From Candidatus Saccharimonadota bacterium (GTDB lineage: Bacteria; Patescibacteriota; Saccharimonadia; Saccharimonadales; Saccharimonadaceae), in the NCBI GenBank assembly GCA_039920285.1, contig JBDSDX010000001.1, forward strand, positions 240,001 through 272,000: 32,000 bases of DNA, in the 5' to 3' direction. Under the pieces are notes generated by a model that had not been told where the DNA came from, did not search any database, and was given only the letters and a program-made list of their open reading frames with translations. How positions within the stretch are numbered: the stretch's first letter is position 1; every line of letters begins with the position of its first letter. This document shows positions 11,529 through 13,061 of this stretch, piece by piece. The position numbers and the translations under genes are program-made.

Positions 11529-13061
11529 CTACTCGTAGAAAGGTGATACCTGTTTGAATAACTGAACTTCGAGTATCGGTATAGTGGTCGGCATCTTTTG
11601 AACGGTTGTTCTGTTGGTGATAGGTATATCAAGTAGGTCTTGCATAACGGTTTCCAACCAAGAAGCATTCCATAAAATATTTCCTGGGTTTGATCTCAGA
11701 CCAATTAATTTCGTGAGCTTCTCGTCGTATGTGATCGTCTTATCTATCTTGTGAGATATACGCTGCAGCCAAACGTCTAGTAAGCCTGAGTTGGGTACAC
11801 GTTCGAACTTTGTGCGTATCTCTTTGACAAGTGCTACTTGTCGTCCCTTCTTGCAGAACTCAAGAAGTTTACTGATAGCAGCCATTGAGATCTGATACGT
11901 GTGTGGGTTTTTGATCGCAAGGTTTACGACGATACTGATCATTACTTCTGGGTCTTCATAGCTGTTTAACTTTTGAATTGTCTGGATTGTTTTCACGAAC
12001 CTATTTAGCTGTCGCTTTACCATACCTGAGTTAGGGTAATGGGTTGAAGCTGTGTAGATCATCAACAACCACTTTGCTTTATTGTTAAGATCTTTTGGAT
12101 TGAACAACTCATATAATTTATCTGGCTTTATAGCAGCCGTGATGGGGTCACTTTGCTGCTTTGTTTTTGATGTGTTGAGCTTCATGCCTAAGCCTGATAG
12201 AACTTGAGACAAGTGTTTGACAATGTCTCTACCAAGTTCAGGGTTGTTGGTGAAAATCTTATAATCGTCACGGAACCTTACTATGTGGTAGTCATCTCGT
12301 TCACCAATAAGTTTTATCAATTCGTTGTCCGCATAGGCAAGTACGAGCTCGGCTATGAAGTCCATCACTGTACTTCCCTGTGGTATGCCGTTCGTCTGCC
12401 CATACCGCATTCGTTGTATATAATGATCCATCAGGTTCCCTAAGTAGCCTGCATCACCGCGGTTGTTCTTCATTACTGGTTTTGTATGCATAGCCCACGC
12501 AATTGAGTGTGTGTAGATAGAGCCATAACAGTCGGCTACATCGACATCAAATACATACTGGTATTTTAAACCAAGCTTTACCGACGTTTGCTCAACATGT
12601 GTCCACCATCGCTTTACTTGCTTTGCTTTATGGGAATCGTCGGTTTGTGTAACGGCTACCTGTGGCATGCTTTCGCAGGCAATCTGGGGGTGCCGCAATT
12701 CAGCAAAGCGTTCACACAAAGAAGTCCAGTTAGCCTCTTCAGTCATCTTGTGTATTAGTGCGACATACAGCACGGGGTTGATGATTTCAAAAGGACGCCA
12801 CGCAAACTCACCATCTTTGTTGCTCAACAGGCTATAGTTTACATTCTCGTAGTTTTCTGGCTTCATCGTGCCAATAGCCTGTCCGTCTGCGTCATGGATT
12901 TGCCTGTAGTAGTCGCGTATGTCTTTGTCCGCTAGCTCTTCAGAGATCTTAGTGAGCATTGGGTCAAAGTTAAAATACGTTGGCAAGTCAAAGTTAACGA
13001 AGTTATCCCCCTCGAGGAAGTAGTTTCGTGCCTCGTCATGGCTTAGCTCTAAAATATCCAT
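11529..13061 (-). CDS. Reverse transcriptase of the UG/Abi (defence-associated, DRT-type) class with a helical C-terminal extension
   Basis: RT motifs in order:
- WRPFEIINPVLY (aa 88-99).
- DVDVADCYGSIYTHSIAW (aa 172-189), the block-A-plus-YTHSIxW signature shared with AbiK.
- NGIPQGSTVMDFIAELVL (aa 224-241).
- Catalytic VRFRDDYKIF (FRDD at nt 12264-12275).
- LGMKLNTSKTK (aa 291-301).

About 200 aa of helical C-terminus follow. There is no group II intron maturase/endonuclease domain and no retron-type motifs. Confidence 0.9.
   Translation of the reverse strand: MDILELSHDEARNYFLEGDNFVNFDLPTYFNFDPMLTKISEELADKDIRDYYRQIHDADGQAIGTMKPENYENVNYSLLSNKDGEFAWRPFEIINPVLYVALIHKMTEEANWTSLCERFAELRHPQIACESMPQVAVTQTDDSHKAKQVKRWWTHVEQTSVKLGLKYQYVFDVDVADCYGSIYTHSIAWAMHTKPVMKNNRGDAGYLGNLMDHYIQRMRYGQTNGIPQGSTVMDFIAELVLAYADNELIKLIGERDDYHIVRFRDDYKIFTNNPELGRDIVKHLSQVLSGLGMKLNTSKTKQQSDPITAAIKPDKLYELFNPKDLNNKAKWLLMIYTASTHYPNSGMVKRQLNRFVKTIQTIQKLNSYEDPEVMISIVVNLAIKNPHTYQISMAAISKLLEFCKKGRQVALVKEIRTKFERVPNSGLLDVWLQRISHKIDKTITYDEKLTKLIGLRSNPGNILWNASWLETVMQDLLDIPITNRTTVQKMPTTIPILEVQLFKQVSPFYE

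Follow-up and report, generated by a model that had tools for sequence, protein, structure and literature searches.

The 32,000-nucleotide stretch analysed here (the window; positions 240,001 to 272,000 of contig JBDSDX010000001.1, assembly GCA_039920285.1, from a Candidatus Saccharimonadota bacterium) carries an intact gene for a 510-residue reverse transcriptase (RT)-like DNA polymerase of the Abi-P2 family at 11529..13061 on the minus strand, identified from open reading frame (ORF), profile and structure evidence. The start codon ATG is at 13061, the stop codon TAG at 11529-11531, and the 510 codons are read with zero interruptions. The initial annotation, made from the letters alone, described the gene as a stand-alone, defence-type RT of the UG/Abi class. 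This is borne out and can be sharpened: very likely the gene encodes a full-length Abi-P2 family polymerase, i.e. a protein-primed, template-independent antiphage enzyme, which is carried as the cargo of an island.

The motifs of the palm and fingers are present in the order that the initial annotation gave. The first catalytic aspartate, Asp174 (codon 12540..12542, minus strand), opens the DVADCYGSIYTHSIAW block, D174-VADC-Y179-G-SIYTHSI-A-W189, which is the DxxxxYxSIYTHSIxW block described earlier. The QTNGIPQGS motif is found at residues 222-230, and the catalytic box F263-R264-D265-D266 (12264..12275, minus strand; the family norm is YRDD) lies within V-R-F263-R-D-D-Y-K-I-F. The predicted protein-priming tyrosine is Tyr29 (codon 12975..12977, minus strand), which stands in LPTYFNF and aligns to Tyr61 of the E. 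coli Abi-P2 (LPAYINF). In an alignment of 86 homologues P27, Y29, D174, R262, R264, D265, D266, Y267, K299 and T300 are invariant. The catalytic aspartate triad D174, D265 and D266 is thereby intact in the window RT and conserved in 86 of 86 sequences, i.e. no catalytic residue is lost in the alignment.

We built an AlphaFold2 model of the RT on the 86 homologues (predicted local distance difference test, pLDDT, 94; pTM 0.93). In the model Tyr29 is located in a non-helical stretch. Residues ~306-500 (11562..12146, minus strand) are all-helical according to DSSP, with a pLDDT mostly above 90, and form a C-terminal helical domain in the position of the RT thumb, as also seen from the sequence and fold alignment to the structure 7r08; this is the helical C-terminus of about 200 residues that was noted from the sequence alone. 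A Pfam scan of the protein returns RVT_1 only (E = 6e-13; 49 bits, cutoff 29.6), with no fused effector, maturase or endonuclease domain. The earlier statement that no fused effector, intron RNA, Cas genes or retron motifs accompany the gene agrees with our Pfam, Rfam, repeat and neighbour-gene scans, none of which found any of them; Cas genes were looked for near the RT.

The window RT is a member of the known, structurally characterised Abi-P2 family. PADLOC, one of the checks proposed for the gene, assigns it to AbiP2 with E = 2.1e-177 and 588.8 bits, and the match covers RT residues 2-504 and positions 6-485 of the 489 in the profile. In a sequence search of the PDB the best match is 7r08, the Abi-P2 of the E. 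coli prophage P2-EC30 (E = 7.4e-73, residues 3-470), and the tblastn hits among phage records are P2-EC30 and P2-EC58, aligned over 98% of the query with 31-32% identity. Using Foldseek, all six chains of 7r08 are retrieved by the model at a TM-score (TM) of 0.82-0.88 over the full length, E = 2e-31. The structural comparison separates the RT from the other Abi and DRT polymerases, for which the TM is 0.64 (DRT6), ~0.5-0.6 (DRT4/UG15), ~0.55 (AbiK) and ~0.45 (AbiA).

It is very unlikely that the RT belongs to another UG/Abi or DRT group (DRT4/UG15, DRT6, UG14 or the DRT2, DRT3 and DRT9 systems that depend on a non-coding RNA, ncRNA) and copies an adjacent ncRNA into templated cDNA. Such a reading could draw on the significant secondary profile matches in PADLOC, i.e. 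RT_UG14 (E = 8e-50), Drt6 (1e-45) and Drt4 (1e-40), as well as Drt3b and AbiK, and on the DNA next to the gene, with a non-coding stretch of 377 nt upstream and, downstream, a stretch of 177 nt that folds with z = -3.3. However, none of the secondary matches exceeds 168 bits, the score of the runner-up RT_UG14, and AbiP2 is ~420 bits ahead of any other group over the full length. The NCBIfam scores are also far under the cutoffs: 120 bits against 350 for Drt3b, 114 against 450 for Drt4, 40 against 550 for Drt5 and 22 against 390 for Drt2. The fold likeness to DRT6, DRT4 and DRT9 is much below that to Abi-P2. The upstream region folds no better than its shuffles (z = -1.75) and is not conserved at other RT loci, and the downstream structure is found again at island junctions lacking an RT.

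Even the Pfam RVT_1 match and the weak matches to group II intron RT/maturase and retron models leave a negligible probability for a selfish retroelement RT, be it of a group II intron, a retron or a diversity-generating retroelement (DGR). In NCBIfam, the AbiA, retron and group II intron models score the RT far under their curated cutoffs (TIGR04416 53 bits against 300; retron models 16-26 bits against 235-600); the best profile is AbiP2 and not one of these classes. Group II intron, retron, DGR and DRT2/9 enzymes share a TM of only ~0.3 with the model, and the full-length GsI-IIC RT ~0.31-0.33. Rfam at E <= 1 over 9000-17000 reports two tRNAs only, with no intron, retron (msr/msd) or other RNA family; no template/variable (TR/VR-type) repeat pair was found within 9 kb, and the gene has neither a maturase or endonuclease domain nor a conserved effector.

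Several UG/Abi systems depend on a partner or an ncRNA, and both were looked for here. To describe the neighbourhood, all ORFs within 4 kb of the RT were clustered at 91 loci of relatives, taken from 80 GTDB species representatives and from metagenome contigs. No conserved partner gene was found among these loci: the commonest neighbour family is present in 27 of the 91, and no recurrent family occurs in the window. Flanking genes lie less than 60 nt from the RT at several homologue loci. In the window the two neighbours on the upstream side encode a Bro-N protein and a DinD-like protein; as they are confined to this island among the 91 loci, both were ruled out as partners.

The RT and the Bro-N gene are divergent, and in the 377 nt that separate them (13062..13438) the source record calls no gene. 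ORF107 (13111-13434) within this region has no match in four libraries and was likewise not called, and we treated it as non-coding. Neither flank of the RT (11359-11528 and 13062-13438) has a counterpart at the other RT loci compared. The structured 177 nt downstream were considered as an ncRNA of the RT and rejected; because the structure recurs at junctions without an RT, it is part of the island and not of the RT. With no conserved neighbour, no conserved or structured upstream flank and Rfam empty beyond the tRNAs, the window RT is a single-gene system without partner or ncRNA. Abi-P2 has also been described as a single-gene system (PMC9226505). The 13062-13438 region is probably promoter/operator DNA rather than an ncRNA. 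It contains a 21-nt repeat, CCGCGGACGTTGGTATT, at 13290-13310 and 13410-13430, with an inverted partial copy near 13375-13390, and these repeats look like operator sites for a regulator.

The catalytic box was earlier taken to differ from the usual one by two changes, V to R and Y to F, and to mark a possible distinct subgroup. Both points have to be given up. Of the 120 closest relatives in the databases, 106 have YRDD, as does the E. coli Abi-P2, and since it is the Abi-P2 norm the arginine is no variation. Phenylalanine replaces the tyrosine in 12 of the 120. At position 263 of the 86-sequence alignment there are 74 Tyr and 12 Phe, and a Fitch count on a neighbour-joining tree gives at least nine independent Y/F switches for these 12 occurrences, which rules out FRDD as a clade marker. 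The closest homologue, at 66% identity, has Tyr, and both residues are intermixed among the nearest relatives; Phe is locally enriched in the clade around the window RT, 9 of 22 sequences. Because F occurs in 12 of 120 members and is polyphyletic, the box tyrosine is typical of Abi-P2 but not defining.

Phe263 corresponds to Tyr282 of Abi-P2 and Tyr245 of AbiK. In AbiK, Tyr245 stacks on the nascent DNA, and Tyr282 is its counterpart in Abi-P2 (PMC9508834). The natural and recurrent exchange of Tyr for Phe at a DNA-stacking position is a ready mutational series for Abi-P2 enzymology. By analogy we expect the Phe263 enzyme to be active, because Phe retains the stacking aromatic ring and because RTs with FADD in this place, such as LINE-1 ORF2p, are active.

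The survey of homologue neighbourhoods, also proposed for the gene, does show a defence context. The recurrent neighbours at the 91 loci are HsdS (27), HsdM (22), HsdR (22), RhuM (12), Schlafen/AlbA_2 (6) and Fic (6). The closest homologue adjoins a D12 methyltransferase and an EcoRI-type endonuclease, another adjoins DUF6731, NUDIX and Cap15-like genes, and a third is found within an element that has two large serine recombinases and a coupling-protein-like ATPase. One homologue stands by itself, inserted between murT/gatD and recG.

TM7x_03560 of Candidatus Nanosynbacter lyticus TM7x is 46% identical to the window RT over 99% of the query and was seen on 38 contigs. The TM7x-type homologue is placed between hsdS and hsdR in a Type I restriction-modification (R-M) operon, in the order hsdM, rhuM, KAP NTPase, hsdS, RT, PIN-like, hsdR. 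The loci with this R-M operon and the RT come from TM7x-type Nanosynbacter genomes (L002-L005, 3771-14079); in L002 both hsdM and hsdR look split into two ORFs.

The role of the window RT is, by analogy, likely antiphage defence of the abortive-infection type. A defence role is supported by the R-M, Fic and Schlafen neighbours among the homologues and by the genes on the island in the window that match PDC-S13 profiles of PADLOC.

The island is an RT-bearing element that sits at the 3' end of a tRNA-Met gene, its integration target, and the earlier proposal of a tRNA-inserted island is hereby confirmed. It is bracketed by two direct-repeat copies of 45 nt, of which the left, tRNA-distal one (11314..11358) is located downstream of the RT gene and is reproduced in an independent Logan assembly, and the right one (15863..15907) overlaps the last 7 nt of the tRNA-Met and a terminator-like hairpin. 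The tRNA has a CAU anticodon and is called as Met (15901..15978, minus strand; ARAGORN, Rfam tRNA 62.4 bits). The two copies are identical at 39 of 45 positions, and the chance expectation for this is ~4e-9 in 9 kb. Read on the tRNA strand, each copy consists of the 3' heptamer of tRNA-Met (GCAACCA), after which come a hairpin and a U-run. The left copy folds at -17.3 kcal/mol (z = -3.2) and the right copy at -19.8 kcal/mol (z = -4.0), and the six differences between the copies leave the hairpin stem paired. As both copies hold the tRNA end and the terminator, the element brought, or displaced, a copy of them.

Between the repeats there are 4.5 kb with the RT, the Bro-N gene, the DinD-like gene and ORF191. 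The Bro-N protein (13439..14332, plus strand, 297 aa) matches Pfam Bro-N (1.2e-10), phrog_15286 (8e-60) and, over its full length, the PADLOC profile PDLC04920 of PDC-S13 (1e-85). The DinD-like protein (14394..15326, plus strand, 310 aa) matches a separate PDC-S13 profile, PDLC04919 (6e-60), likewise over its full length, and phrog_8036; its match to NCBIfam DinD has E = 8.9e-48 and 163 bits, which is under the 242-bit cutoff. The two proteins are not similar to each other and are not paralogues. With two PDC-S13 candidate genes beside the RT, this is an island with more than one defence-type gene. The DinD-like protein has a further match (E = 7e-33) to a "Type I specificity subunit" profile, in the N-terminal third of that profile.

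ORF191 (15369..15944, plus strand) is the C-terminal remnant of a large serine recombinase, located at the tRNA end of the island, and runs through the right repeat into the antisense strand of the tRNA. Among its homologues are longer proteins that carry PF07508 Recombinase and PF13408 Zn_ribbon_recom domains, one of them named "site-specific DNA recombinase", and with its C-terminal part it is similar (E = 1e-5) to the end of a 508-aa Resolvase/Recombinase protein. Pfam finds no domain in ORF191 itself, a remnant without the catalytic domain, and for this reason the island is probably now fixed in place and not mobile. Many ORF191 homologues (P0122-P0132) are 186 aa long despite 52-65% identity, and others have 111-313 aa. 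The conserved 186-aa length could mean that a truncated recombinase is kept under selection and is not decaying. The GC content of the island equals the window average, 45.1%.

It is unlikely that the Abi-P2 homologue in the window is a non-defensive or non-functional passenger, either a relic of a dead island or a gene that serves the mobile element itself. The truncated recombinase would fit a passenger, as would the GC content equal to that of the host region, which suggests a long residence, the Tyr to Phe exchange in the catalytic box and the homologue that stands alone among housekeeping genes; Abi-P2 has also been described as highly mobile across mobile genetic elements (PMC9226505). 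On the other hand, the ORF is full length with all invariant family positions intact, and Phe arose in at least nine lineages without loss of any of the remaining invariant residues, a pattern that speaks for its tolerance. A terminator-like hairpin downstream of the RT makes a plausible transcription unit, and defence neighbourhoods dominate among the homologues.

Several points weigh against the assignment of the window gene as an active Abi-P2 defence enzyme. The identity to the sole characterised Abi-P2 is only 31-32%. Position 263 holds Phe and not the DNA-stacking Tyr of AbiK, where the sole substitution assayed is to Ala. The recombinase is truncated and the island is decaying, and the RT, which shows no lesion, could be on its way out. 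PDC-S13, a PADLOC system, is only a candidate, and the in vivo trigger of Abi-P2 and the cause of death are unsettled in the literature (PMC11077055).

The proposed mechanism of the window RT as an Abi-P2 defence enzyme, i.e. its oligomeric state, enzymatic activity, trigger and phenotype, is carried over from characterised relatives by analogy. The E. coli enzyme is a trimer, potentially a hexamer, and synthesises DNA without a template (PMC9508834). It primes on Tyr61, as Y61F is dead while Y46F is active (PMC9508834). The window RT is predicted to consist of a palm-and-fingers RT-like domain fused to a helical domain that replaces the thumb and, as in the P2-EC30 enzyme, would form a trimer or hexamer. 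The first nucleotide would be attached to the hydroxyl of Tyr29, and the enzyme would then, with no template, extend a single-stranded DNA (ssDNA) whose sequence is not defined. Catalysis would be by Asp174, Asp265 and Asp266, with synthesis in the channel between the two lobes.

How phage infection would turn this activity into cell death or growth arrest is a looser step, for which a DRT4-like course is our best guess. In the related DRT4 a phage DNA-binding protein keeps the host exonuclease off the ssDNA, and the DNA accumulates, which is thought to kill the cell (PMC12783706); escape from AbiK maps to phage single-strand annealing proteins (PMC9508834). The RT would have been brought in as cargo when a ~4.5 kb element inserted itself at the tRNA-Met 3' end, and the recombinase would have been truncated later.

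Directly inside the left repeat, at 11360..11461 on the plus strand, we found a coding-like tail of 33 codons, QVEANWNQISSELIRW...stop. It has no bearing on the identity of the RT. The QVEANWNQISSELIRW tail is in frame with the peptide encoded by the repeat, ...KSFLVA, and ORF191 crosses the right repeat with the identical KSFLVA peptide and frame before it enters the tRNA-antisense sequence. The same tail is present at two internal junctions of L011, a related Saccharimonadales genome (5122 and 6277), and at 12 metagenome loci (L095-L106). Across the loci it spans 26-35 codons, with the consensus QV[GEV][AST]NWN-x-[LI]-xx-E-[LI]-xx-W. Every copy starts abruptly after unrelated sequence and stop codons, without an upstream gene body, and the variation is concentrated at synonymous positions, i.e. 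it is codon-like. The junction motif was rejected as a tRNA fragment or RNA gene, as ARAGORN and Rfam are empty there and the variation is codon-like.

In L011 the segments 5072-5143 and 6240-6298 are junctions of the type hairpin, CTTGGTTGC and tail, located between a tRNA-Met and a Pyr_redox gene. Each has its own hairpin sequence, and these differing hairpins suggest a tandem accretion of small cassettes. In L095, near 1068-1115, the conserved Trp codon of the tail is TGA and the downstream codons are still conserved, which means either a recent pseudogenisation or a recoded TGA.

The tail may stem from a recombinase gene with the attachment site inside it, whose native 3' end was displaced; this origin is unconfirmed. 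Integration at the tRNA-Met would then swap the last ~33 codons, leaving the tail at the far junction and the body reading into the tRNA, and a circle joining ~15860 to ~11360 would encode ...KSFLVAQVEANWN... in frame. Integrative elements of the SSV type have attP inside the integrase gene. The island resembles them in its tRNA target and in its two ends, which together look like a single recombinase gene, with the body at one end and the displaced 3' tail at the other, in frame across the direct repeat; it differs from them by a serine instead of a tyrosine recombinase, by the displacement of only ~33 C-terminal codons and by the truncation of the recombinase body itself.

Three results leave a split recombinase gene without confirmation. 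The tail profile matched no protein among 5.8 billion, and no intact recombinase gene with the tail was seen in that search. In L099 and L104 the junction is near a tRNA-Met with no recombinase between them, and a full-length serine recombinase of another element ends approximately where ORF191 meets the repeat, without a tail. It is a rather doubtful possibility that the 4.5 kb unit is what remains of a small Saccharimonadales element from a family not yet described, with a serine recombinase, the attachment site inside the recombinase 3' end, tandem accretion and the shuttling of cargo such as Abi-P2 and PDC-S13 between genomes of the Candidate Phyla Radiation (CPR). If this were true, the locus would give a view of the exchange of immunity genes among ultra-small genomes.

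Related genomes have the remnant of the recombinase, with its tRNA-Met, beside divIC and a second CAU-anticodon tRNA. The cargo next to the remnant in L011 is different and consists of Schlafen/AlbA_2, SocA_Panacea and unknown genes. As this cargo has no PADLOC match, the idea of a defence hotspot based on L011 was dropped, and we call the tRNA-Met site a variable hotspot and not a demonstrated defence hotspot. In the window, the segment with the second tRNA and the recombinase remnant is inverted relative to divIC when compared with L011 and L013. The GT4 glycosyltransferase gene (10252-11253, minus strand) is located on the outer side of the left repeat, with a strong promoter-like site of its own. 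It was rejected as island or defence cargo because of this position and the absence of a PADLOC match. Its match to Pfam GT4-conflict has E = 3.5e-4 and 20 bits (cutoff 26), and the gene is absent at the equivalent position of L011.

The closest characterised system is the Abi-P2 of E. coli (P2-EC30 and P2-EC58; 7r08; Figiel et al. 2022, PMC9508834; Odegrip 2006, as reported in PMC9508834), which confers resistance to phage T5. The window RT shares with it the PADLOC group, the two-lobe architecture, the size class of ~510 structured residues and the occurrence as a single gene on a mobile element. The LP-x-Y-x-NF priming motif, the catalytic aspartates, the R-[YF]-RDDY box and the QTNGIPQG motif are also common to both. 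However, the window RT starts without the ~31 disordered residues found at the N-terminus of the E. coli enzyme and has Phe for Tyr282, and it is found on a 4.5 kb tRNA-Met island in a CPR genome of ~0.8 Mb and not in the hypervariable region of a P2 prophage.

TM7x_03560 and the other Saccharibacteria homologues are of the same family and phylum, stand alone and have a variable, defence-type context. The TM7x-type copy has YRDD and is part of a Type I R-M operon, whereas the window copy has FRDD and is located on the tRNA-Met island with PDC-S13-type genes. AbiK of Lactococcus, DRT4/UG15 and DRT6, which are protein-primed polymerases that need no template, have in common with the window RT the DxxxxYxSIYTHSIxW-type motif, priming on a tyrosine of an N-terminal loop and a helical domain in place of the thumb. 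They are also single-gene systems with an abortive-infection outcome; for the window RT, this outcome and the priming would hold by analogy. These are separate groups, both according to PADLOC (1e-32 to 1e-45 against 2e-177) and to the fold (TM 0.5-0.64 against 0.82-0.88), and the helical domains of the AbiK/DRT-type polymerases and of Abi-P2 are not homologous in sequence (PMC9508834).

The window RT is a solid but ordinary example of Abi-P2 and leaves the current understanding unchanged; a standard PADLOC run would already label the gene AbiP2. It adds a well-supported Saccharimonadales example to a family with a known structure and in vitro chemistry. The defined tRNA-Met island and the tail at its junction, which is unexplained, give it some modest value beyond this.

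An identical protein in NCBI comes from a metagenome-assembled genome (MAG) of Candidatus Saccharimonadales, on a contig of 795 kb, in agreement with the CPR-like genome suggested by the initial annotation. The housekeeping genes in the window, i.e. Mur ligase, DivIC, sortase, RuvB, YebC and Pol IV, fit a small, Gram-positive-like CPR genome. The independent Logan assembly (L001) is 100% identical over a region that has the Bro-N gene at one end and DivIC at the other and includes the RT and GT4, and the island junction is therefore no binning artefact.

Across species representatives, the Abi-P2 family is found at no fewer than 588 loci (at least 588) in many phyla. Among the best 80 of these, CPR members are two Saccharibacteria, one "Patescibacteria group", one Dojkabacteria and one Peribacteria. 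The view that a reduced genome is an unusual setting for such an RT does not stand, given the homologues in TM7x, other Saccharibacteria, Dojkabacteria and Peribacteria and the high density of defence systems per Mb in CPR (PMC12259885). According to that survey of 2025, covering 3004 CPR MAGs, CPR have fewer defence systems per genome but a higher density per Mb than other phyla. UG/Abi RTs of CPR had already been noted as UG38 (PMC9226505), and a patescibacterial epibiont with defence islands has been described (PMC13059738). A single-gene abortive-infection polymerase belongs to the mobile immune repertoire of CPR, including the cultivable TM7x, whose homologue is a practical route to what abortive infection means for an obligate epibiont.

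Three CAU-anticodon tRNA genes are present in the window within a span of 12.5 kb, all on the minus strand (9661-9736, 15901-15978 and 22044-22120); presumably they are the initiator, the elongator and tRNA-Ile2. At 20311-22012 an ice-binding-like surface protein is encoded directly upstream of a sortase, and a protein with two Lamin-tail-domain matches is located at 25361-26836. Both are probably cell-surface features of an epibiont.

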